Positions 5,330 to 15,762 of a stretch of 16,151 nucleotides of DNA are shown here, one piece after another. This DNA comes from Candidatus Hadarchaeales archaeon. GTDB taxonomy: Archaea; Hadarchaeota; Hadarchaeia; Hadarchaeales; JAWBSP01. The stretch lies in the NCBI GenBank assembly GCA_038842485.1, contig JAWBSP010000023.1:1-16151 (forward strand), read 5' to 3'. Both the position numbers and the translations under genes were made by a program. Position 1 is the first letter of the stretch. Every line of letters starts with the position of its first letter. The notes below the pieces were generated by a model. The model saw only the letters and a program-made list of their open reading frames with translations, was not told the origin of the DNA and ran no database searches.

Positions 5330-6694
5330 TCATTTCTCGAAATCCCCGGCATTTTGGTATTTCTGTTGGTTTTCTTTCCTAAGCAGCCAGCTCCAAAGGG
5401 GGAGGAATTTTATCCTCTTCCCTTCTATGACCTCTTCGGCACTGTAATCCTCCGTCAGCACGAGCCCCGACTTAACACCCAGCTCCTCCATCGCCTTTAA
5501 AAGCCCCTTGATTTCTCTTTCCCTAGTTTCTTCATCGGAGGGATTCCAGCAGACCTGGATGAGCTCTCTGACCTCCATCCCTTCCCTCACGACAAAGTCA
5601 ACCTCCCTCCCGGCTCGGTTTCTCCAATAATTTATTTCATACCTCGGTGGTTCAAACCTCCTTCTCAGAGAGAGATAGGCCACGTTCTCGGCCAGCCTGC
5701 CGATTCCTTCAGGAAACCTTCCCGTGAGGCAGTTGATTATCCCGGTGTCAACGCAGTATACTTTTTTGGGGTAAAGCATCTTGTTCTTGACCTTGCGCGA
5801 GAAGATCTCGACCGGGAAGAAGAGGAAGACTGATTCTGCATACCTGAGGAAGTTCGCGAGCGTTTTCTTGCTGCACCTGAGCCCCATGCTCTTAAAGTAC
5901 CTTTCAATCTTGCTCAGGCTCACATGCGAGGCAAAGTTCTGAGAGAGGTACCGCAGGAAGGAGCTGAGAAGGGAAAGGTTCTTGATTGCATACCGCTCAG
6001 CGAGGTCCCGGTAGAATATCGTCTCGAAGTAGGAGGAAAGCAGTCTCATTTTGATTTCCCTGTCCCCCGTGAGCACAACTTCTGGAAAACCACCAAACTC
6101 TAGGTACTCCCTGAGCATCCTGAGAACCTCCCCTCTTCTGGCCGTGTACTCTAGCTCCGTGAGGTCGGTGAAGGTGAAATTCTTGGCCCTTAGAAACTCT
6201 CCGAAGGAAAAAGGGTATAGAATATAAGTCAGGCATCTGCCTCTAAGGGAGGTTGCGATCTCCTGCGCGAGAAGCTTGGAGGAGGAACCGGTGATGAATA
6301 TCCGGTACCCTCCCTCATCTTGAATTCGCCTAACCCACCTCTCCCAATCCCTGACGTTCTGGACCTCGTCGAGAAAGAGGTATAGAGGCTTTCCCTCTTC
6401 CACCTCGAAGATTTCCCTTTGTGCAACCAGCAGATCCTGAAGGTCGGAAGCATCCAAGTTCCTCAGCCTTTCGTGTTCAAAGTTAACGTAAAGGACGTTG
6501 CCCCTTCCCGTTTCCTGCAGCAGTTTCTTAATTGTGCTAAAGAGTAGGTAGGTTTTCCCACACCTCCTAACACCCGCTACCGAAACGATCTGGTGAAGTG
6601 AGGTGGGTAAGGAGAGTTCGCGGGGAAACACGGCAGGCAGCTCGAGAAATTTCCACCAAGCCAGCACGGCCCTGAAATCTTCGATCCTCCTCAT
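5330..6694 (-). CDS. COG1373 AAA+ ATPase (AAA_14 + HTH-like region + DUF4143)
   Basis: Walker A GVRRCGKT, YVNFE, Walker B LFLDEVQ, ITGSSS, LRGR, PFSFGEF, GGFPE, KKVYCVDTG, EN, YWR...EVDFVV...LIQVC. ATG 6694 lies about 25 bp downstream of TTTATAAA. Confidence 0.92.
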   Translation of the reverse strand: MRRIEDFRAVLAWWKFLELPAVFPRELSLPTSLHQIVSVAGVRRCGKTYLLFSTIKKLLQETGRGNVLYVNFEHERLRNLDASDLQDLLVAQREIFEVEEGKPLYLFLDEVQNVRDWERWVRRIQDEGGYRIFITGSSSKLLAQEIATSLRGRCLTYILYPFSFGEFLRAKNFTFTDLTELEYTARRGEVLRMLREYLEFGGFPEVVLTGDREIKMRLLSSYFETIFYRDLAERYAIKNLSLLSSFLRYLSQNFASHVSLSKIERYFKSMGLRCSKKTLANFLRYAESVFLFFPVEIFSRKVKNKMLYPKKVYCVDTGIINCLTGRFPEGIGRLAENVAYLSLRRRFEPPRYEINYWRNRAGREVDFVVREGMEVRELIQVCWNPSDEETREREIKGLLKAMEELGVKSGLVLTEDYSAEEVIEGKRIKFLPLWSWLLRKENQQKYQNAGDFEK

Positions 6695-6697
6695 CCC

Positions 6698-6746
6698 GGT
6701 TACTTTAGGAAACAATTATTTATAAATATCGTTTCCTTAAGGAAAC
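6698..6746 (-). promoter_or_regulatory. TATA box (6719-6726) flanked by two related palindromic boxes
   Basis: Perfect palindrome GTTTCCTTAAGGAAAC at 6731-6746, degenerate copy GGTTACTTTAGGAAAC at 6698-6713, TTTATAAA between them. Confidence 0.7.
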
Positions 6747-6783
6747 AAAATTGGACCGTGAACTGACTAAGCCGAACGAGAAG

Positions 6784-6894
6784 ATGGGCGTAATGTTTGT
6801 TGTACGTGCCCGCTGGCATGGCTTTACCATCCCCCAACCAATTCGTTTTGTATACAAATGGGAGAGGTGGAGATCCATATGGAATCATTTATAG
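6784..6894 (+). pseudogene. Possible decayed AbrB/SpoVT-like small DNA-binding protein
   Basis: MGVMFVVRARWHGFTIPQPIRFVYKWE resembles the AbrB 'TIPxxIR' signature. GD and MESFIVKV follow in shifted frames. Weak. Confidence 0.3.
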
Positions 6895-6899
6895 TAAAA

Positions 6900-7026
6900 G
6901 TGTTGCACTGTAACACGTGTTACACCGGAAGTTTGAACAGGTGAAACACAAGGAATTGGAAGTCGAAAATTCCGGTTATAATCACATGGTTTTCGGCTTT
7001 TCCGGTTGTGTTACTATAGTAACACA
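6900..7026. repeat. GTGTTAC/GTAACAC palindromes
   Basis: GTGTTGCA-C-TGTAACAC at 6900-6916, perfect TGTAACACGTGTTACA at 6909-6924, perfect TGTGTTACTATAGTAACACA at 7007-7026. Confidence 0.85.
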
Positions 7027-7094
7027 TGGAAGCGACTGGGTTCCGTATAGTTTTCAATGTTGGAAACCGTTAAACCGAGCAAGGCGGATTTTTA

Positions 7095-7148
7095 AAATTC
7101 GCAATAAAGTGCGAGTTTTTTTAATTTTATTCGCAGTTAATTGATGAA
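7095..7148 (+). promoter_or_regulatory. TATA-like tract (7116-7126) flanked by two TTCGCA-N6-TG(C)GA-type boxes
   Basis: AAATTCGCA-ataaag-TGCGAGTTT at 7095-7118 (1 mismatch) and ATTCGCA-gttaat-TGATGAA at 7129-7148, overlapping the start codon. Confidence 0.6.
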
Positions 7149-8418
7149 ACTGCGAACTTTGCTCGAGGACCAAAGGGCGGAGCTGGAGGAGAAGGTGAGG
7201 GGAACGAAGGTGGTAGAAAGAGAATTCGTGCATGCCGCGAGGGAGAGGGCAAGAAGCGGTTTGGCAAAGGTGATCACCGGGGTGAGAAGGGCAGGGAAGT
7301 CTTTCTTTACCTACCTACTACTGAAGGATAACTTCGCCTACGCAAATTTTGACGACAGGCTCCTCTCAACCGCCGAACACGAGCAAATTCTTTCCGCGCT
7401 CCTCGAGCTTTACGGGCAGACCAAGACGATTTTCCTGGACGAGGTTCAAAACCTCGAGGGCTGGGAGCTGTTCGTAAACAGATTGCTGAGGGGGGACTAT
7501 AACGTTTTTGTAACCGGTTCGAGCGCCAGACTCCTGAGCAGGGAGCTCTCAACCCATCTGACGGGAAGGCATCTCCCCCTAGAAATCTTCCCTTTCAGCT
7601 TCAGGGAGTACCTCGTCTCGTTGAACTTCAAGGAGGATCTTGGCACGAGCAGGGGACAGGCGCTCGCAAGGAGGGCCCTTTTAGACTATCTCGCTTCCGG
7701 TGGATTTCCCGAGGTGGTCGCTAGGGGTGAGAATCCCAAGCTTTACCTCAGGCAGCTCTTCGAGGACATAGTTGAAAAGGACATCATTGCCCGTTACAAG
7801 GTCAGGCACGATGCGGCCTTCAGGGAAATGGCGAGGACGTTGCTCGCTCAAGTTGGCAAACCGGTGAGTTTTCACAGACTCAAGAACCTCTTCGGGCTCG
7901 GAAGCGACCACACCGCAAAGGATTACCTCCTCTATCTCCAAGAGGGGTACCTGTTGCTCCCCCTGAGCAGGTTCTCCTTCAAACCAGCTGAAATAGAGAG
8001 GAGCTTCAAGAAGGTTTACACGGTCGACCCTGGCTTCCTCACACACGTCGCTCTTCTTCCCTCAGAGTCGCTCGGGGACAGGCTCGAAAACCTTGTGGCT
8101 GTTGAGCTCATGAGAAGGAAGAGTTACTTCAGACCGGGGCTCGAACTATTCTATTTCAGGGTGAACCAGGGAGAGGTGGACTTTCTCTTGAGAGAGGGGC
8201 TCAGGGTCGTTCAGCTCATCCAGGCTACCTTCGCCAGTTCAAGGGAGGAGGTGGAGAAAAGGGAAGTAAAATCGCTCCTCGAGGCCTCAGAACTTCTGGA
8301 CTGCAGAGATTTGCTCGTGATAACCTGGGACTATGAGGGGGAGGAGGAAAGGGATGGGAAGAAAATAGTCTTCAAGCCGGCGTGGAAGTGGCTCCTGGAA
8401 ATCCGATCCACAGGTTGA
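7144..8418 (+). CDS. COG1373 AAA+ ATPase (AAA_14 + HTH-like region + DUF4143), second paralog
   Basis: Walker A GVRRAGKS, YANFDD, Walker B IFLDEVQ, VTGSSA, LTGR, PFSFREY, GGFPE, KKVYTVDPG, LENLVA, EVDFLL...LIQAT, C-terminal PAWKWLL. Confidence 0.92.
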   Translation: MKLRTLLEDQRAELEEKVRGTKVVEREFVHAARERARSGLAKVITGVRRAGKSFFTYLLLKDNFAYANFDDRLLSTAEHEQILSALLELYGQTKTIFLDEVQNLEGWELFVNRLLRGDYNVFVTGSSARLLSRELSTHLTGRHLPLEIFPFSFREYLVSLNFKEDLGTSRGQALARRALLDYLASGGFPEVVARGENPKLYLRQLFEDIVEKDIIARYKVRHDAAFREMARTLLAQVGKPVSFHRLKNLFGLGSDHTAKDYLLYLQEGYLLLPLSRFSFKPAEIERSFKKVYTVDPGFLTHVALLPSESLGDRLENLVAVELMRRKSYFRPGLELFYFRVNQGEVDFLLREGLRVVQLIQATFASSREEVEKREVKSLLEASELLDCRDLLVITWDYEGEEERDGKKIVFKPAWKWLLEIRSTG

Positions 8419-8474
8419 TGAGGGTCGAGATCTCAAATCGTTTCCCCAAGAGTGGGGACTTCGAACGTTCGCCA

Positions 8475-8717
8475 TCATTCAACGTTGGACCTGATGCCCC
8501 TGATGAGCTCCACTCTGGCCCCTCGCTCCCGACAGAAGTGGGCTATCTGCAGGGCGATGTCCAGTCTCTCGGCCCTCACGACGCTGTACTGAATCAACTC
8601 CACCAGACCCTGCGATTTTAGGCGCTCTAGAAGGCGGTAGAGGCCCCGTGGAGCCTTGCCCCTGAAATCGTAAATCACGTAGTGGCGAACGTTCGCCACC
8701 CCCGCTCTCTTCATCAT
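8475..8717 (-). CDS. Stand-alone Cas2/VapD-like small protein (ferredoxin-like fold predicted)
   Basis: 80 aa. HYVIYDF at the N-terminus and ELIQYSVV in mid-protein match Cas2 'hhhYD' and 'QxSV' signatures. TTATAAA at 8745-8751 on the - strand is about 28 bp upstream. Alternative GTG start at 8699. Confidence 0.65.
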   Translation of the reverse strand: MMKRAGVANVRHYVIYDFRGKAPRGLYRLLERLKSQGLVELIQYSVVRAERLDIALQIAHFCRERGARVELIRGIRSNVE

Positions 8718-8752
8718 CTCTCGCTTGGTTTTGAGCGAGAGTTCTTTATAAG
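8718..8752 (-). promoter_or_regulatory. TATA box plus 8-bp inverted repeat between TATA and start of the Cas2-like gene
   Basis: CTCTCGCT (8718-8725) N8 AGCGAGAG (8734-8741), followed by TTTATAAG at 8745-8752. Confidence 0.55.
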
Positions 8753-9039
8753 CAGGTAAATTCGAGCAGTGTACACATACATGCCCGCACCCGCATTCAT
8801 GGATAAGAATACCGACGGGAGATTTGATCTAAACACATACGGGGAGCTCTGGATCTTGTAAGGGATTTGGATTGCGAACGTTCGCAGACCCTTCCTTCAC
8901 TTGAAGGCCTAGTTCCCTGAGTTATGCATGCGTTTTCGAGTAAGATCAGCGGCCAGAACCCTGCGACACTTGGCTGGAGGAGGAAAGGGCGAAAGTAGGC
9001 GAGAATTGGCTGACGAAAGTTGGGGCTTGCCGGGTTCTT

Positions 9040-9432
9040 TCAAATCCATTCCCACCCCGCTGGCAGGTTGAGGAGCAGGTAGCCGTAGAGGACGAAGAGG
9101 AGATAGGCGAGCAGGCAGTAGAGGAAGTACCTTCGGGTGAGGGATGCTTGGAGGATGACCACCGTGAGGAGGGAGAGACCGCTCAGGCAGGTGACCTTAT
9201 CCCTGGTTGCCACTCCGAGGAGCCAGAGGATCAAGCCGTAGGAGAGCAATCCTCCCCTCGCGAGTGCCCCGAAGATCCCCTCCCTTCTCCTGTAGGCGAG
9301 TGCTCTTTCCCTCTCCTCCCAGTGGGCGAGGACTAGGGAGTGGAAATATTCCTTCAGGACTAAGGAGAGAAGGCCCAGGTAGAGGAGATAGGAGGGCCAA
9401 CCCGTGAGCAGGAAAGTTAGGTTTACGGTCAT
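9040..9432 (-). CDS. Integral membrane protein (about 4 TM), last gene of MoxR operon
   Basis: ATG 9432 (MTVNLTFLL...) overlaps the upstream stop as ATGA. The longer listed ORF (to 10002) overlaps the real upstream gene. Confidence 0.75.
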   Translation of the reverse strand: MTVNLTFLLTGWPSYLLYLGLLSLVLKEYFHSLVLAHWEERERALAYRRREGIFGALARGGLLSYGLILWLLGVATRDKVTCLSGLSLLTVVILQASLTRRYFLYCLLAYLLFVLYGYLLLNLPAGWEWI

Positions 9433-10175
9433 CCCAAGAGGAGTGGCACGGTAAGAAAGAGGGCGAAGGTCAGGCCCATCATCCCCAGCCAGCCGGGGAT
9501 GGAGTTCAGCTCGGCGCTCTGCAGGAGGTAAACGGAGGGGGAGAACTGGCGGAGGATGGTCAGGTTGAGGGTGAGGTCCGCGGCTAGGTAGAAGAGACCC
9601 AAGTAGAGGAAGAGGTGGGCGAACCTCAGCGGTCTGGCCAGGTAGGGGCTCACCTGTCCCTTCACCTCCTTCATGAACCTGTGCTCCCTGGAACCCATCC
9701 CGGTCACCCAGAAGTAGAGGGAGAAGGGGAAGAGGAGCTCCCTGAAGCTGAGCCAGACCAGCGAGGGTTCGAGCCTCCCCCAGCCCGGCATGAGCCAGGC
9801 CCAGGTGGCTGTGAGGACGAGGAAGCAGAGCCAGCGGTGGCTGGGTCTCCAAACGGCCTCGGCTAGCAGGAGGAAGAGCAGGAGGGAGAGCGTCTCCCTG
9901 CTCACCGAGGTCACTCTTTCCCCCACCAAAACCGGGAGGGAGGAGAAGAGGAACCATAGAGTCGGCAAGAGGGCTGCCTTGGCGAGCGGGGGAATCCTCC
10001 ACTTCCTAACCCAGAGCCAGAGAAGGAAGGGGGAGAGGAGAAAGGTGGAGAGGAACCCAAACCGGAAGAATCCTGGGCTCAGGGGGAGAGAGGGGGGAAG
10101 CCAGGGCTCGAGCTTGCTCACCATCCAGCCGCAGAGGAGGAGCGAGAGGATGTCGTACTCGTTGGGCGCCCTCAA
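9429..10175 (-). CDS. Polytopic membrane protein, unknown function
   Basis: 248 aa, multiple Leu/Phe/Trp-rich helices; 4-bp overlaps with both neighbours. Confidence 0.75.
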   Translation of the reverse strand: MRAPNEYDILSLLLCGWMVSKLEPWLPPSLPLSPGFFRFGFLSTFLLSPFLLWLWVRKWRIPPLAKAALLPTLWFLFSSLPVLVGERVTSVSRETLSLLLFLLLAEAVWRPSHRWLCFLVLTATWAWLMPGWGRLEPSLVWLSFRELLFPFSLYFWVTGMGSREHRFMKEVKGQVSPYLARPLRFAHLFLYLGLFYLAADLTLNLTILRQFSPSVYLLQSAELNSIPGWLGMMGLTFALFLTVPLLLG

Positions 10176-11461
10176 GTCATGGCCACCCCCAGCCTCTTCC
10201 TCTCGAGCACCGCCTTCATGACCTTCGGGAGGAAGTCGCGCGGGCCCACCTTCACGCAGTCCACCCCCAGCTTCTCCAGTTCCACCTCCACCCTCCTGTA
10301 CGCGCGTTCCATCTCCTCGATGAGGGCGGACTGCACCGGGGCAAGAATCTCGGGTTCCTGTGGTTCAGCCTCGAAGAGCGGGGTAAAGGGGCAGACCAGT
10401 AGAAGCTGGTGTCCCCTCCCCCTGAGCTTCTTCACCGCTTCCTTCAGATTCTCTAGGTCCATCTCCAGATCCGTGAGGAGCAGCACGAGCATGGAGCGCT
10501 TGGTTGAGCGGCAGATGAAGTTGGCTAGCTCCTGGTAGGACTTTCCACCCTCCGCCCGCACCCCCGTGAGGAGTTCCAGCATCCGGTGGAAGTGCTCCCT
10601 GCCCTTCCCCGGTTTCAGGTAGCCCAGCACCCGGTCCGAGAAGGAAACCGCCCCGTACGAATCCCCCCTCTCCTCGGCCACCCTGGCGAGCAGCATGCAG
10701 GCGCTCACGGCGTACTCCAGCTTGGTGACGGGTTCCCGCCCCCCGCTCATGGTCCAGCTCGAGTCCAGGCAGAAAAGAAGGGTGATGTTCCTCTCCGCCT
10801 CATACTCCCTGGACATCAGCCTTGAGTACCTGGCCAGGTGCCTCCAAGAAATCTTCCTGAACTCGTCGGTGGGCACGTACTCCCTTATCGCCCTGAAGTC
10901 CCCTCCCAGTCCGGCCTGCCTCGTGCGGTGGGGTCCGTAAAGCTTTCCCAGCTGCCTGGACTTCCCCCTGAGTTCCAGTTTTCTCACCTCCTCGTAGCTC
11001 GGGCGGATGGTGAGTTCTTGGGGCGGCTGGATCTCGACCGCATCCTCGAAGAGCCCGAATCTATCCCTCAGCCTGCACCACAGTCCGACCTTGTATCTCC
11101 CCCTTTTCGCCCTGAACTTGTACTCCCTCCAGTACCTCCCGGGCTTGAGGAAGATCCTAGAGCTCACGTCCGGCGGGAGGAAGCGATCCTCGACCTCGAA
11201 CAGGTCCGGGTAGAAAAGCCCCCTGGCCCTTAGCCTCCCCTCCACCGGTCTGTCGGCGAAGAGCTTGGTGTGCTCAAACTCCCGCCTCACCACTCTCTTC
11301 ACCAGCGCACGCTTGAGGGAGAGGTCGAAGAGGGGAGGGAGGAAGCCGAGCCAGAGCAGCATGCCGGCGAAGAAGAAGCCGGGTTTGTTGAGGAACAGGC
11401 TCAGGAGGAAGTAGGAGAGACCGACCAGGAAAACGGTGTAGAACCCCCTAGTGGGTCTCAT
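10172..11461 (-). CDS. DUF58 / vWA-domain protein (MoxR partner)
   Basis: N-terminal TM pair, KRGRY, GGDFRAIREYVPTDEFRKISWR, SREYEAE, MIDAS-like LDSSWTM, TKLEYA, LLLTDL. Confidence 0.92.
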   Translation of the reverse strand: MRPTRGFYTVFLVGLSYFLLSLFLNKPGFFFAGMLLWLGFLPPLFDLSLKRALVKRVVRREFEHTKLFADRPVEGRLRARGLFYPDLFEVEDRFLPPDVSSRIFLKPGRYWREYKFRAKRGRYKVGLWCRLRDRFGLFEDAVEIQPPQELTIRPSYEEVRKLELRGKSRQLGKLYGPHRTRQAGLGGDFRAIREYVPTDEFRKISWRHLARYSRLMSREYEAERNITLLFCLDSSWTMSGGREPVTKLEYAVSACMLLARVAEERGDSYGAVSFSDRVLGYLKPGKGREHFHRMLELLTGVRAEGGKSYQELANFICRSTKRSMLVLLLTDLEMDLENLKEAVKKLRGRGHQLLLVCPFTPLFEAEPQEPEILAPVQSALIEEMERAYRRVEVELEKLGVDCVKVGPRDFLPKVMKAVLERKRLGVAMT

Positions 11462-12396
11462 CCCTTGAGGCGCGGGACCTCCACCGAGGATTCGATGGAT
11501 CTTATGACATCCAAGACGCTCTTCCCCTCCAGCTCCGCCTCCGGCCTGAGGATGAGCCTGTGGTTCAGCACGGGGATCAGCATGGCCTTGACATCGTCAG
11601 GGATCACGAAGTCCCTTCCCCGGAGGGCGGCATGGACCCTGGAGGTGAGCTGGAGGGAGAGGGAGGCTCTGGGGCTCGCACCCAGCAGGAGGTCGGGACT
11701 CTTGCGGGTCCTGAGCACGAGCTCCGCGATGTAGTTCCTGATGGAGGGATCCACGTAAACCTTCTCCACCTCCTTCGAGAGCCTCACGATTTCCCGCGCA
11801 GAGGTGACGGGTTTGACTTCCTTCTCTCTTTCCTTCAGCTCGAGGATTTGGAGCTCCTCTTCCTTGCTGGGGTAGTCCACAAGGATCTTCATCAGGAAGC
11901 GGTCCACCTGTGCCTCGGGAAGGGGATAGGTTCCCTCGAGCTCTATCGGGTTCTGGGTGGCTAGGACGATGAAGGGGGAGGGGAGGGGATAGGTCTTCCC
12001 CTCAACCGTCACCTGTCTCTCCTGCATGCACTCGAGCAGGGCGGACTGGGTCTTGGGAGGGGAGCGGTTCACCTCGTCCGCCAAGACGACGTTTGCGAAG
12101 ATGGGCCCCTCTCTGAAGACGAACTCTCCCGTCCGCTGGATGTACACGTTGGAGCCCAGGATGTCCATCGGGAGGAGATCCGGGGTGAACTGGATGCGTT
12201 TGAACTTGCAGCCCAGAGCGGCGCTGAAATTCTTGGCTATATGGGTCTTGGCTATCCCGGGCACTCCCTCCAGCAGAACGTGCCCCCCCGCGAGGAGGGA
12301 GATGAAGATCTTCTCCACCACGTCCTGCTTCCCCACCACCACCTTCGAAAGCTCCCTGCTGAGGCGCTCCCAGAGGTGTTTTATCGCCTCGACCAT
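11458..12396 (-). CDS. moxR: MoxR-family AAA+ ATPase
   Basis: GGHVLLEGVPGIAKT, RIQFTPDLLPMDILG, GPIFANVVLADEVNRSPPKTQSALLECMQE, ATQNPIELEGTYPLPEAQVDRF, GASPRA, PDDVK, HRL. Confidence 0.97.
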   Translation of the reverse strand: MVEAIKHLWERLSRELSKVVVGKQDVVEKIFISLLAGGHVLLEGVPGIAKTHIAKNFSAALGCKFKRIQFTPDLLPMDILGSNVYIQRTGEFVFREGPIFANVVLADEVNRSPPKTQSALLECMQERQVTVEGKTYPLPSPFIVLATQNPIELEGTYPLPEAQVDRFLMKILVDYPSKEEELQILELKEREKEVKPVTSAREIVRLSKEVEKVYVDPSIRNYIAELVLRTRKSPDLLLGASPRASLSLQLTSRVHAALRGRDFVIPDDVKAMLIPVLNHRLILRPEAELEGKSVLDVIRSIESSVEVPRLKG

Positions 12397-13679
12397 TCCT
12401 CGACGCTCCTCTCAACTTCCCTCAGGTTGCTTATCAGCCTCTTAGCGGTTTCCACGTCCACCCTGAGCACACCCTGCTCCACCAGATGGCCGATTCTCAC
12501 GGTTTCCGCCACCCTCTCGAACTCCTTGGGAAGACGCTCGCGCAGAGTCTCCAGGATCTCTCTGGGGGAGGGTTCGGTCCCCAGCAGCCTGCCGCACTTC
12601 CGCAGGAAGTGTCTGTAGCAGGCGAGGAAGGGGAGGGAGAAGTCGGCCTTGGTGCTCGATTTCGAGGCCTTGGTGTATCTCTCCATCTCCTGCATGAGTC
12701 TCCCCCTTGGTTTGGCGGGCGGCTTAACCCTCCCCGCCCGGCCTGCATAAACCGCGGCCGCCACCAGCCCGAGTGAGAGGAGGAAGAACTTGTCGGTGAG
12801 CCAGGCCGACCAGAGCCAGAGCTCCGGCCTGTGACCCGAGTGGGTGAGGTCGAGGAGAACCGTCTTCCTCTCCATTCCCCCCAGCGGCGTGGAGGTTTCC
12901 ACCTTGGTGGCCCATTCCAGCAGCGATTGGACGAAGTACCGGTTGCTCTGGATGATGTTGTTGATGAAGATTCCCGGATCCGCGATGAGCACGAGCCTTC
13001 CTCCACTGGAAAAGTTTCCGGCGATGATCACGGGATAGGAGCCAGAGGGCTCATCCGGGTCCTGTGCGCCGTTCCGGTTCTTGTCTGGGTAGGCCTGGGG
13101 GGTGGTCAGGGCCTTGGAGGTTACGTTGAGCGTGCCGAGCCCAGCAACCGGCTCGATGACCTCGACAATCCTGCCCCCTAGGATCAGCCTCCTGCCCTCG
13201 ATATAGGAGGGGTAGTTGGTGAGGATGGCGGAGACGCCAGAGAAGATCTCCCCTTCCAGGTTCCTCAGCACGACGAAGTCGGGCCTCCTCTCGTAGCTCC
13301 CGGGATCCCTGAGGAGGTAGTTGGAGATTTTCACCCCGAAGTTCAGGGTATTTCCCGTCCCCTCCACATCCGCGACTAGGATGAGGGTTCCCCCGCCGGC
13401 TAGGAAGTTGATCAGCTGCGTTCGTTCCCAGTCGGAGAAGGGTTCGGTGGGGCCGAGGGTGATCAGGACCGCTCCTCGGTACTGGGCGAGGACGGAGTAA
13501 TCGGTGGTGAGGAGCTTGGCCCTGTAATCCCTCTGGAGGAACTCCCAGAACTGCGAGCACCCCTTCCATCCCCCGTCAAAGGGCCCGTAGGCGGAGGGCA
13601 GAGCTGAGGGCCCCTCCCTGGTGCTCAGCAGAATCAGGGCCGCGAGGGCCAGCAGGAGCAGGGCAGTCTTCTTCCCCAC
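12381..13679 (-). CDS. DUF4350-like membrane-anchored protein
   Basis: N-terminal signal/TM, GWKGCSQF, GPTEPFS..E...L..FLAGGGTLILVAD, GRLVLIADPGIFINN, second TM, cytoplasmic tail. Position is typical of MoxR loci. GTG start. Confidence 0.8.
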   Translation of the reverse strand: MGKKTALLLLALAALILLSTREGPSALPSAYGPFDGGWKGCSQFWEFLQRDYRAKLLTTDYSVLAQYRGAVLITLGPTEPFSDWERTQLINFLAGGGTLILVADVEGTGNTLNFGVKISNYLLRDPGSYERRPDFVVLRNLEGEIFSGVSAILTNYPSYIEGRRLILGGRIVEVIEPVAGLGTLNVTSKALTTPQAYPDKNRNGAQDPDEPSGSYPVIIAGNFSSGGRLVLIADPGIFINNIIQSNRYFVQSLLEWATKVETSTPLGGMERKTVLLDLTHSGHRPELWLWSAWLTDKFFLLSLGLVAAAVYAGRAGRVKPPAKPRGRLMQEMERYTKASKSSTKADFSLPFLACYRHFLRKCGRLLGTEPSPREILETLRERLPKEFERVAETVRIGHLVEQGVLRVDVETAKRLISNLREVERSVEEWSRR

Positions 13680-13680
13680 C

Positions 13681-15762
13681 TCAACCCCATTTCATCTTGT
13701 CGATGGTGGAGCAGAGGCCCTCCAAGGCAGAGGCGAACTCGGCCTGCGTGGGCTCCTTCTGGCTGAACATGCACTTCTCGTAAACCTTGACGAACGCCTC
13801 GAAATCCTCCCGCGGGAAGCCCTCAAACTTCCTGGCGAGCTCGGAGGCCACCTCCCTCGCCGTCTGGTTGACCCTCACCTCGTAGAGCCCCGCCCCCATC
13901 AGCATGCCAAGGAACTGGTGGTAGGCCGCGATGATGCCGTCCTTGTAGCGCTTGGCGGAGGAAAACTCTTCCAGCATCTTCCTCATGCTGGTGGAGGGCA
14001 GGGGTGCTTCCTCCTTCTTCTTCCTCCTGAAGATGAGCAGCAGGGGGAGAGCGACCGCTGGGGCAAGGAGCATCATCCGCCACGGGAACTCCTCGGAGAT
14101 CTCCTCCACCACCTCAAAGGTGTGATTGGTAGATTTAGAGGGCATGTATCCCCAGCTCGGGGGAGGATCGAAGCAAGTCTGAACCGAGTGCCTCCCGGGT
14201 GCGAGATCCTGGGTGGGAAGGCTCAGCCTGTAGTTTCCCCGATTGTCGGTGGCGGTGGAGCCGGCGGGCTGGCCGTCCAGCAGGAGGGTTATGGTCTTGC
14301 CCCCCACCCCCTCACCGAGATCGTCTAGGAGCTGGCCCCTGAGTTCTAGGTGCTCACCCTTGGACACTTTGGAGCGGCTTAGGTGGAGGCTGAGTCCGGT
14401 CTCGGAGTAGAGGAGGAAGGGAAGGATGTTGTCGGCCTCCAGCGATCCCTCCCTAAAGGTGGCGCTCAGGTAGCGGGTTCCAACCCTTTCTGTGCGCGGG
14501 AAAGTGTAGGTGGCGGTGGCGGGCTCCACCCTGGTGAGGAGGGTGGTAAGGCCCCTCCAAGTTGAGGTGTCTAGAATTCTGACCTCCCTCCCGGCTAGGG
14601 GAAATCCCTGCCAGGTCAGCCGAACCGTGAAGCTCACGTTCTCCCCCCTTCGTCCATTCTCGGGGCTGATCCAGAACTCGAGTTTGGGCTTGGGTTCTTC
14701 CTCCTCGGGGGGAGGGTTGTAGGTGTTGGGGGGATACTCGAGGGGGAGGTGGGTCGGTCCCTCCCCCGGCGGTGTGGCATCGAAGTAGACCCAGCCATAG
14801 GGGGGGAAGTAAGCCTCCACTTGGGCGTGTCCGGGAGGCGTGTACAGCAGCTTGTTTCCAACTTGTTGGGTCGGGTGGTAGCCGAAGACCATGCGGGCTG
14901 GGATACCCAAGCACCTCAGCAGGACGGCCAGGGTGGTGTTGGCGTGAAAACAGTGCCCCTGTCTGGCTTGAAGGTAGGTCCAGGCTGCGTCCCTCTCAAT
15001 GGTTCGTGTTAGGGGTCCGTAGGTGAAGCCCGTCTTCAGATACTCCACCACCCTCATGGCTTGGCGGTAGGGGCCCAAGCTCGGGTTTCTTAGGTTCTCG
15101 GCAACCTCTCTGACCTCTTCCGGAAGGGAGAGGGGGAGCTGCAGGCACTTTTCCCTTATCTCAGCGGGGGCGCCCTCGAGATCCTCCCAGCCGACCATCT
15201 CCAGCATCTGGGGGGAGGGGAAGGGGTGGAAGCTGGTGCTGTACCTAATCGTGGCTGGGGTTTTGGTTCTAAGCCTGAAGGTGCCGGCGAATTCGTCCCT
15301 CAGTAGCTCGAAGCTGGTTACTGGATTGGTGAGGAAGTTGAAGACCTTTGAGGTGGAGGAGGGGACGGGCAGGGAGATTTCCCCGCCAGCCGTCTCCAGT
15401 TCCACTTGGAGGGTGTATGGGGCGCTCTCGGCTTCGGGCTCGACCCGGGGGCCGGCGGTGGTCTTCTGCCATTCGGTCCCCGTGTAGTAGTCGGCCGTGT
15501 CTATCTTCATGAAGAGGACCGGACTGGTGGGTTCCACGGTGAAGAGAACCGCGGGTGAGCCCTGGGGGACCTCGTTTTCGCCAGAGGGGATGTGCCACTC
15601 GTTGGAGGAAGGAGGAAGAACGGTGTTTTCGGGTCCCCAGGGTGAAGAGCCAGGTCCACCTCCCCCGCCGGGACCGTACTCAGGAGGGGCCCCCTCGAAC
15701 GGGAGCTCGTAGGCAAGGACGGCTGGGAACAGGAGAAGCAGGAGGAGAGCGGGCCACCTCAT
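13681..15762 (-). CDS. Secreted, membrane-anchored transglutaminase-like protein with Ig-like domains and DUF4129-like C-terminus
   Basis: Signal peptide; DYYTGTEW; triad motifs GHCFHANT, LLRCLGIPARMVFGY, HAQVEAY..PYGWVYFDATP; beta-rich repeats; TM followed by RRKKK; QTARE...YEKCMFS. Confidence 0.88.
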   Translation of the reverse strand: MRWPALLLLLLFPAVLAYELPFEGAPPEYGPGGGGGPGSSPWGPENTVLPPSSNEWHIPSGENEVPQGSPAVLFTVEPTSPVLFMKIDTADYYTGTEWQKTTAGPRVEPEAESAPYTLQVELETAGGEISLPVPSSTSKVFNFLTNPVTSFELLRDEFAGTFRLRTKTPATIRYSTSFHPFPSPQMLEMVGWEDLEGAPAEIREKCLQLPLSLPEEVREVAENLRNPSLGPYRQAMRVVEYLKTGFTYGPLTRTIERDAAWTYLQARQGHCFHANTTLAVLLRCLGIPARMVFGYHPTQQVGNKLLYTPPGHAQVEAYFPPYGWVYFDATPPGEGPTHLPLEYPPNTYNPPPEEEEPKPKLEFWISPENGRRGENVSFTVRLTWQGFPLAGREVRILDTSTWRGLTTLLTRVEPATATYTFPRTERVGTRYLSATFREGSLEADNILPFLLYSETGLSLHLSRSKVSKGEHLELRGQLLDDLGEGVGGKTITLLLDGQPAGSTATDNRGNYRLSLPTQDLAPGRHSVQTCFDPPPSWGYMPSKSTNHTFEVVEEISEEFPWRMMLLAPAVALPLLLIFRRKKKEEAPLPSTSMRKMLEEFSSAKRYKDGIIAAYHQFLGMLMGAGLYEVRVNQTAREVASELARKFEGFPREDFEAFVKVYEKCMFSQKEPTQAEFASALEGLCSTIDKMKWG

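Follow-up and report, generated by a model that had tools for sequence, protein, structure and literature searches.

A palindrome-boxed Cas2-like gene in a mobile cassette of Hadarchaeales

For Cas2 we know of no clear job outside the Cas1-Cas2 integrase, and the nuclease activities reported for it are, as far as we are aware, unexplained. Stand-alone homologues of Cas2 and VapD on mobile elements have been discussed (PMC3506569), and in the BPSL1038 subfamily one stand-alone protein of this type has been shown to nick DNA (PMC10491678); the accessible parts of these papers, from which they are cited throughout, describe no cognate palindrome built into the gene, no repeat arrays and no site rearrangements. 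The locus presented here lies in a stretch of 16,151 nucleotides from a Candidatus Hadarchaeales archaeon (the window; contig JAWBSP010000023.1 of assembly GCA_038842485.1). It contains a small gene whose protein appears to share with these nucleases a small ferredoxin fold of the dimeric type, a conserved Asp, the lack of Cas1 and a place on a mobile element. What sets it apart is a short palindrome which is built into the first codons of the gene and returns directly behind its stop codon. Comparison of the homologous loci shows, as set out below, that the palindrome appears to be read by its sequence, that it is recombinogenic in DNA and that protein and palindrome are locked together in a mobile cassette. 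A palindrome-boxed Cas2-like gene with scattered and arrayed copies of its palindrome seems to be undescribed in the accessible parts of the literature searched.

Two other described systems have to be compared with this locus from the start. In REP/RAYT (the REPtron) a single gene lies between its own short palindromes, which also occur as dispersed and arrayed copies with alternating spacers, and all of this is found here. RAYT, however, belongs to the HUH/Y1 transposases and measures about 150 aa; the present protein has a predicted Cas2 fold, no HUH motif and no Pfam transposase match; moreover the palindrome is present in low copy number (up to ~20) and one copy is coding. By analogy the unit would work most like REP/RAYT, yet it fails the defining feature, the HUH transposase. 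The PaaX-like regulators carry an N-terminal winged helix followed by a Cas2-like domain, whereas here there is a single domain and no winged helix.

The window is contig C23 of a 943-kb, 27-contig Hadesarchaea/Hadarchaeales assembly (G000) which is 88.9% complete, and the sequencing runs containing this stretch are hot-spring metagenomes. The comparisons within the class were made with 65 species genomes, all belonging to one order; all compared genomes are metagenome bins, and counts over related genomes are not independent of each other. The first-pass annotation of this DNA had drawn attention to a palindrome with the 10-base core CGAACGTTCG at 8462, 8686 and 8875, perfect over 10, 18 and 14 bp, respectively. 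All of these coordinates are correct (8462-8471; 8682-8699, GTGGCGAACGTTCGCCAC; 8873-8886), and the core is found nowhere else in the window, where 0.01 copies are expected and none of 200 shuffles reaches three. It was also right that one copy lies about 160 bp upstream of the gene, the copy at 8875 being 158 bp before the first ATG, and that another encodes VANVRH just before a strand YVIYDF: the translation of the open reading frame (ORF) at 8475-8717 on the minus strand begins MMKRAGVANVRHYVIYDF. The statement that the gene is bracketed by palindromes needed redrawing. Two copies, called P1 and P2 in the following, do flank the gene, but the copy at 8875 (P0) is outside the conserved cassette and of another type.

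Seven intact orthologues of the small gene give ratios of nonsynonymous to synonymous substitution (dN/dS) of 0.09-0.35 with a median of 0.20 (18 of the 21 pairs, the other three being saturated at synonymous sites), and by this measure the gene is real and under purifying selection. Its homologues start at M/V-ANVRHY or are 3-7 residues longer, and for this reason the core protein is taken to have 74 aa; the start codon may be the first ATG (8717) or the GTG at 8699. The window protein has no Pfam or NCBIfam match, and only nine relatives were found among 5.8 billion clustered proteins and ten at E <= 0.001 in a profile search of 1.84 billion representatives. A search of the ESM Atlas returned only unnamed clusters with scores of at most 0.89, and in sequence searches of the PDB the only matches, to designed repeat proteins, were spurious and contained no stretch that passed. 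Within the class the gene is matched in 17 of the 65 genomes, two of these matches being weak. On these searches the gene family is narrow and the cassette Hadarchaeales-specific. Loci on metagenome contigs were gathered with a 10-sequence alignment (A1), because the 17-sequence alignment (A2) was too diverse for this purpose; no metagenome contig was found to carry the locus of P0015, the most divergent homologue.

The protein is basic and consists of a single domain of 74-80 aa. An AlphaFold2 model built on A2 has a pLDDT (predicted local distance difference test) of 92.4 and shows a ferredoxin fold with the predicted elements E3-11, H18-29, E33-37, E40-43, H46-58 and E62-70; it replaced a model built on A1, for which the pLDDT was 52.8. 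Canonical Cas2 genes are present in 18 of the 65 genomes of the class, and 13 of them were aligned for a profile comparison. Comparison of A2 with these 13 Hadarchaeal Cas2 proteins by hhalign gave 93.4% and E 2.6e-7 over 37 columns, pairing YVIYDF...IQYSV of the small protein with VIYDIS...RIQYSAF of Cas2; only strand 1, helix 1 and strand 2 are aligned, the C-terminal half being left out. The real comparison reached 43.7, as against 18.0 for the best of 60 column shuffles and 11.0 for the reversed alignment. Strand 1 ends in Y-D, strand 2 carries Q-Y-S, and Asp11 at the end of strand 1 (74-aa numbering; Asp17 in the 80-aa ORF) is found in at least 90% of the 17 sequences. The strand-1 Asp has been described as a metal-binding or catalytic residue in Cas2 (PMC10491678). 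The Pfam family Cas2 (PF09827) was the sole recurrent weak match, N-terminal and in four of seven members (E 0.04-0.19; 12.4-14.6 bits); the curated threshold of 23.8 bits was reached by none of the seven, and the window protein gave no match. Foldseek found nothing at E <= 1e-3, and among the matches listed 23 of 41 were Cas2 structures or Cas1-Cas2 complexes (E 3e-3 to 4e-2, TM (template modelling) scores of 0.42-0.60, identity 11-22%). The best 50 matches in the distance-based VIA-align were generic ferredoxin folds and none was Cas2, a result still compatible with Cas2 kinship.

We conclude that the small protein is a shortened descendant of Cas2, homology being demonstrable for the first half only. 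The earlier suggestion of a ferredoxin fold related to Cas2 is in this way borne out by the model, by the hhalign comparison and by its shuffle controls. Kinship is seen in the Y-D of strand 1, the Q-Y-S of strand 2 and the first-half profile homology with the Cas2 of the same class; the differences are a length of 74 aa, compared with ~85-99 aa for Cas2, and a score below the Pfam threshold. Another difference lies in the surroundings: no cas1, other cas genes or CRISPR array were found here, and the start of the gene and its 3' flank are formed by a palindrome unrelated to the CRISPR repeats of the relatives.

The first-pass annotation had noted the absence of cas1 and of a CRISPR array in the window and had called the module CRISPR-independent. 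This holds for the whole assembly at its 88.9% completeness: neither cas1 nor a Pfam-level cas2 gave a match, and a k-mer scan of all 27 contigs showed no CRISPR-type array. Among the related genomes there is no link between the small gene and canonical Cas2, which occurs in 3 of 15 genomes with the small gene and in 15 of 50 others (p 0.53). We also considered whether the palindrome arrays described below might themselves be CRISPR arrays and rejected this; their spacers are mutually homologous, and the true CRISPR repeats found in relatives show no kinship with the palindrome. A CRISPR array has repeats of ~23-50 bp and unique spacers, whereas here ~16 bp are repeated per ~71-bp unit and the spacers are alike both within and between arrays.

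The order of the cassette is an archaeal promoter, a short leader, P1, the gene for the 74-80-aa protein and P2 (Table 1). In all intact loci P1 forms codons 2-5 and P2 stands directly after the stop codon as TGA-TGG-core. The spacing from P1 to P2 is 224 bp in all eight genome loci with a 73-codon gene (G000, G013, G016, G017, G020, G030, G031 and G032) and likewise in all eight intact metagenome loci, one of these being a contig already counted among the genome loci. Three shorter or decayed loci have a spacing of 218-221 bp. Some loci have a third copy, P3, 63-70 bp beyond. Upstream of the gene the order TTATAAA box, inverted repeat, ATG is conserved. At most other loci the inverted repeat at this place is CCGCC..GGCGG, so that CTCTCGCT..AGCGAGAG in the window is a compensatory difference. 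With the usual spacing between an archaeal TATA box and the transcription start, the transcript is predicted to begin a few bases before the ATG, and P1 would lie ~10-30 bases inside it. At one locus (L027, G030:C54) a second module of promoter, inverted repeat and ATG (~45 bp, 80-91% alike) lies ~1 kb upstream of the cassette; as it precedes an unrelated short ORF, the promoter module is itself repeated.

The claim that the palindrome is conserved near the starts of homologues at the level of DNA, synonymous sites included, can be judged from codon usage. The codons for ANVR, GCG AAC GTT CGC, are identical in all eight orthologues. Among 22 other columns with an invariant residue 17 use two to four codons and five are fixed, against four of four in ANVR. 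The final codons with the stop (GTT GAA TGA) and the adjoining P2 are almost frozen likewise. This pattern of codon use shows that the palindrome is selected as nucleic acid and not as codons.

The palindrome was analyzed further in 82 distinct sites from this genome and the fetched loci, orthologous sites in related genomes being counted separately. Over several genera the inner 10-12 bases are invariant in the 82 sites, some loci having been found by way of a 12-mer of the palindrome. At positions +-7 the pair G..C was found 44 times and T..A 28 times, other combinations being rare, and at +-8 T..A was found 38 times. The covariation at +-7 defines two symmetric types, TGGCGAACGTTCGCCA and TTGCGAACGTTCGCAA (TGGCG..CGCCA, the G type, and TTGCG..CGCAA, the T type). 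Loci of the G type encode His12 (CAC) and those of the T type Asn12 (AAC); the type of the palindrome tracks the gene variant because its outer arm is codon 12. Within one locus P1, P2 and P3 are of the same type. Such a site, with its core unchanging and its flank symmetric and in two states, has the look of a target for a symmetric partner which reads the sequence, and not of a hairpin recognized by structure only.

Our preferred reading, which we hold tentatively and would put just short of probable, is that the Cas2-like protein binds the palindrome as a symmetric dimer, regulates itself through P1 and may cut by means of a retained acidic site. The protein, dimeric like Cas2, would recognize the 16-bp DNA palindrome T(G/T)GCGAACGTTCGC(C/A)A. 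A dimer on P1 would cover the first codons, 10-30 bp beyond the predicted start of transcription, and throttle the expression of its own gene; P2 would close the unit, and the dimer would find additional sites, as decoys or landing pads, in the extra copies and the arrays. Binding, or cutting by the Cas2 acidic site, would make palindromes break and rejoin, and such breakage and rejoining would account for the flips, losses, junctions and array growth described below. On the whole the element behaves as a small selfish module and not as a part of CRISPR.

Covariation at +-7 also preserves pairing, and this favours another model in which the system acts at the level of RNA. It postulates that the palindromes form hairpins in the transcripts which are bound or cut by the Cas2/VapD-like protein, that P1, at the start codon, and P2, at the 3' end, control the mRNA in which they lie and that the arrays give rise to a repetitive RNA which sequesters the protein or is processed by it, in the manner of a type III toxin-antitoxin pair; an array next to a dead copy of the gene would in this case be an orphan antidote. 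Endoribonuclease activity has been reported for both Cas2 and VapD (PMC3506569). The model also agrees with the basic nature of the protein, with a T-run which, on the gene strand, follows P2 and many of the array palindromes at ~20-25 nt, and with the position of the arrays downstream of gene remnants in the same orientation. On the other hand, the 10-12-bp core shows no compensatory change over the 82 sites in several genera, which points to reading of the sequence; the rearrangements at the palindromes are DNA events; and many copies lie within unrelated coding genes on either strand. In type III toxin-antitoxin systems (ToxIN-like) near-identical repeats precede a toxin of the ToxN/AbiQ type, whereas here the arrays are downstream, their units are only loosely alike outside the palindrome and the protein has a Cas2-like fold. 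We consider the RNA model unlikely.

The core is present in 20 copies in the assembly against none of a reversed control, so that the count over the genome is not random; the earlier view of a rare motif is right for the window, with its three copies, but not for the genome. The assembly contains three decayed copies of the gene, one frameshifted (C11:4682-4879), one with stops (C2:35671-35835) and one a 3' remnant (C9:10159-10242). Directly behind the remnants on C11 and C9 there are arrays of T-type palindromes, six exact and one variant copy at C11:4910-5326 and five at C9:10316-10609. The steps in the arrays are mostly 70-72 bp, a period of ~71 bp, with one step of 51 bp in C11; about 16 bp of each unit are strictly conserved, and the rest is of two alternating, loosely similar types. 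Solitary copies are found at C5:52224, C11:13410 and C11:33057. In the class as a whole 30 of 65 genomes contain the 12-mer, in 1-18 copies that are mostly solitary in the other genomes, and one genome contains the reversed control. The 12-mer is present throughout the 15 genomes with a clear gene match (median 6 copies), as compared with 15 of the 50 others (Fisher p 7e-7, related genomes not being independent).

Many of the scattered copies are inside unrelated coding genes, on either strand; in G031 this is so for about 11 of 16 by the rough ORF criterion on which all assignments to the inside of a gene are based. An Lhr-type helicase gene in the same genome carries two palindromes. At the first one a conserved R-T-F-A motif is retained with all of its codons converted to palindrome, and at the second a variable patch has been replaced. 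There is no change in length relative to 11 orthologues; simple insertion of the palindromes into this gene is therefore ruled out, and new sites would arise by substitution or short-patch replacement.

A further model takes the protein for a transcription factor of the ordinary kind, whose small regulon would be controlled from the palindrome as an operator before the target genes, its own included. A symmetric site which overlaps the start of its own gene, a handful to ~20 sites per genome and the location of some sites in intergenic promoter regions speak for it. It does not agree with a gene which is patchy (17 of 65 genomes), is transferred between families and leaves several pseudogene copies per genome, nor with tandem arrays behind dead gene copies, with the high share of G031 sites within long ORFs or with the lack of a conserved target gene beside the sites. 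We regard it as very improbable.

In four cases DNA breakpoints were found to lie at the palindromes. Since a perfect palindrome repeats its copy in direct as well as in inverted orientation, exchange between P1 and P2 is expected to give both deletion and inversion. Both were found, and they break exactly at the palindromes, in agreement with the earlier suggestion of recombination there. On G022:C57 there is a solo-palindrome element from which the gene is missing, while promoter, leader, a single palindrome and tail are present. Aligned with a full copy, it covers positions 3-50 with its left part and 252-332 with its right, a precise loss of what lies between P1 and P2. On G024:C40 the segment P1-gene-P2 is inverted relative to promoter and tail (the blastn pieces are plus, minus, minus), and the inverted gene is frameshifted. 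In the window the similarity to other loci ends inside P2, the distal arm having been replaced, and in another hot-spring run the boundary of the cassette is at 8462. Invertons and shufflons have a segment flanked by inverted repeats in both orientations, whereas here inversion is seen in one assembly. A scan of 16 ORFs of the window revealed no serine or tyrosine recombinase.

In a bolder version of the dimer reading the Cas2-derived protein would itself serve a selfish element of a new kind as its site-specific nuclease or as a recombination factor: it would cut the palindrome or pair it, flip its own gene between two copies or excise it, seed new sites, also within housekeeping genes, and grow arrays of regular spacing. 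We find this version quite unlikely.

Loci of different genera resemble each other only from ~65 bp upstream of P1 as far as P2, and their flanks are unrelated. With a protein from G017, a member of another family, the window protein shares 88% identity; by comparison, the identity of the housekeeping helicase of G031 to its orthologues is no more than 54% for G000 and 62% for G017. A contig of the other hot-spring run matches 8462-8685 with 3 differences and is unlike the window exactly from 8462, and the neighbouring gene (9038-9797) has 52 differences over ~760 positions in that run. From these comparisons it is evident that the cassette moves between genomes, with transfer between families.

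In two genera (g6 and g7) the cassette is located inside an element of ~410-475 bp with 13-bp terminal inverted repeats, GYACGTATTTAGC ... GCTAAATACGTAC. Two of the three complete elements have perfect 8-bp target duplications (G017, AATTTCTG; G020, CCTACCGC), and the third (G013) an imperfect one with five of eight positions. A 2977-bp element with the same ends on G013:C53 (L136, 1300-5200) codes for an IS66-family DDE transposase. The transposase gene of this element is split by an inserted gene for an IS110-family transposase, and 178-bp miniature inverted-repeat transposable elements (MITEs) with the same ends are found on G013:C88 and C47. The carrier is thus like an IS66-family MITE or mobile insertion cassette in its 13-bp inverted repeats, its 8-bp duplications and a transposase element with the same ends. 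It differs in that the carrier is found in some genera only, while the core of palindrome, gene and palindrome is conserved beyond these genera and is a recombining unit. In the window only a worn left end of the carrier is left and the right end is absent.

A number of observations weigh against binding and breakage of the palindrome by the dimer. The protein has no recognizable DNA-reading domain: a scan of the members for helix-turn-helix families gave no match except a weak one in one long-tailed member, and we know of no case in which Cas2 reads a sequence. The inversion was found in a single assembly (G024:C40). Fifteen genomes, several of them incomplete, have the palindrome and no detectable gene, and in decayed loci the palindromes are mostly still perfect, so that their upkeep is independent of the neighbouring gene copy. 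The IS66 transposase acting in trans explains the movement in g6 and g7, and transposition of the carrier then needs no activity of the small protein. For two further array-forming palindrome families in this genome a search gave no cognate small gene, and palindrome arrays may accordingly stem from an unrelated host process.

The first of these two families, TGTAACACGTGTTACA (centre CACGTG), is present at 6909-6924 in the window and in ~13 copies in the genome; its intergenic arrays in G000 are irregular with steps of 27-82 bp (C16:10821-11015, C18:3484-3715 and C11:20210-20253). The second, TGTTACTATAGTAACA, is found at 7009-7024 in the window, in 10 copies on C13 of G000, at C18:11710-12066 and at C4:31737 and 31951, the pair on C4 being 214 bp apart and enclosing no ORF. 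It has 23 copies in this genome and 1 and 3 in two genomes of the same genus; the remaining 62 of the class lack it. A search of this genome for a cognate small ORF of either family found none, and no such ORF starts on TGTAACACGTGTTACA.

In another model the palindromes come from the host or from another process not linked to the gene, either as a REP-like family spread by some other enzyme or through quasi-palindrome correction at replication. The gene would then be cargo, for example a decoy Cas2 directed against CRISPR adaptation, and a virus-borne Cas2 homologue with mini-arrays has in fact been discussed as an inhibitor of adaptation (PMC10541130, accessible part). The additional families, one of them limited to a genus, the persistence of palindromes in genomes and loci which have no intact gene, and the carrier transposition explained by an IS66 transposase all speak for such a model. 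It has difficulty with the exactness of the cassette: P1 in codons 2-6, P2 at the stop and the 224-bp spacing in all 16 intact loci are too exact for chance capture. Nor does it explain that the type of the palindrome switches together with the gene variant and that the site is present in 15 of 15 gene-bearing genomes; the missing link between the gene and canonical Cas2 (3 of 15 against 15 of 50) is a further difficulty. An origin unlinked to the gene appears rather doubtful to us. The dimer that binds the palindrome remains the reading that we prefer.

Table 1. Coordinates of the cassette, its parts and associated features in the window
Feature	Position	Strand	Remarks
Gene of the small Cas2-derived protein	8475..8717	-	80 aa from first ATG; 74-aa core from GTG at 8699 suggested by homologues
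P1	8682..8699	.	18-bp perfect palindrome GTGGCGAACGTTCGCCAC, identical with gene codons V-A-N-V-R-H
P2	8462..8474	.	Abuts the stop (TGA TGG CGAACGTTCG); gene-proximal arm alone intact
P0	8873..8886	.	14-bp palindrome TGCGAACGTTCGCA, T type; outside the cassette, array-unit-like
TATA-like box TTATAAA (gene strand)	8745..8751	-	Conserved at homologous loci (alignment A4); putative promoter element
Inverted repeat CTCTCGCT-8 nt-AGCGAGAG	8718..8741	-	Between TATA box and start codon
Conserved mobile cassette block (promoter, leader, P1, gene, P2)	8462..8778	-	Similarity between genera confined to this block
Worn left terminal inverted repeat CTAAACACATAC of IS66-type MITE	8829..8840	+	Right end missing in the window
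Array-type spacer remnant behind P2, CTCTTGGGGAAACGATTTGAGATCTCGA	8420..8461	-	Resembles array units of C9 and C11 (by eye, unscored)

The surroundings of the cassette in the window can be described briefly. Two divergent ATPase paralogues of the AAA_14 + DUF4143 type are located at 5330-6715 (-) and 7141-8418 (+), and the 425-bp gap between them has one copy of each of the two additional palindrome families. The first-pass annotation had stated that the ORF next to the small gene starts with ANVR. The reading is correct, since a 63-aa ORF (MMANVRS..., 8287-8478) starts from the copy at 8462, but homologous loci do not conserve it as a gene; it is antisense to the end of an ATPase gene, and we have rejected it. 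Opposite the small gene there is often an open stretch of 59-74 codons on the other strand, which starts at the palindrome, read there as ANVR, in the window (8382-8621, +) as well as at homologous loci, and this is probably a by-product of the palindrome and of GC-rich codons. On the other side a 320-aa ORF (9040-10002) has no family match, and an operon at 10172-15762 (-) codes for DUF58/VWA, a MoxR AAA+ ATPase, DUF4350 and a transglutaminase-like membrane protein. In contigs from three other runs (X6, X10 and X11) one additional T follows position 9037, immediately beyond the stop of this 320-aa ORF; this may be a 1-base assembly difference. The region 5330-9040 has no counterpart beside the conserved genes from 9040 onwards in two genomes of the same genus; as synteny with these two genomes exists on the 9040+ side only, the insertion boundary (the empty site) is unreadable. 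Rfam and tRNA scans of the window gave no match.

What the locus offers is a minimal Cas2 descendant which is tied with the precision of a base, and across genera, to a palindrome that occurs scattered, in arrays and at breakpoints. If the protein reads or cuts this site, a 74-aa protein and a 16-bp site would make a simple system for sequence-specific activity of the Cas2 fold, and possibly a window on repeat biology before CRISPR. Should the protein itself prove to be the nuclease or recombination factor of the site, the element would be the Cas2-fold counterpart of REP/RAYT. It would then be a living case of Cas2 with short, regularly spaced palindromic repeats outside CRISPR, and would bear on the origin of the partnership between repeats and Cas2.

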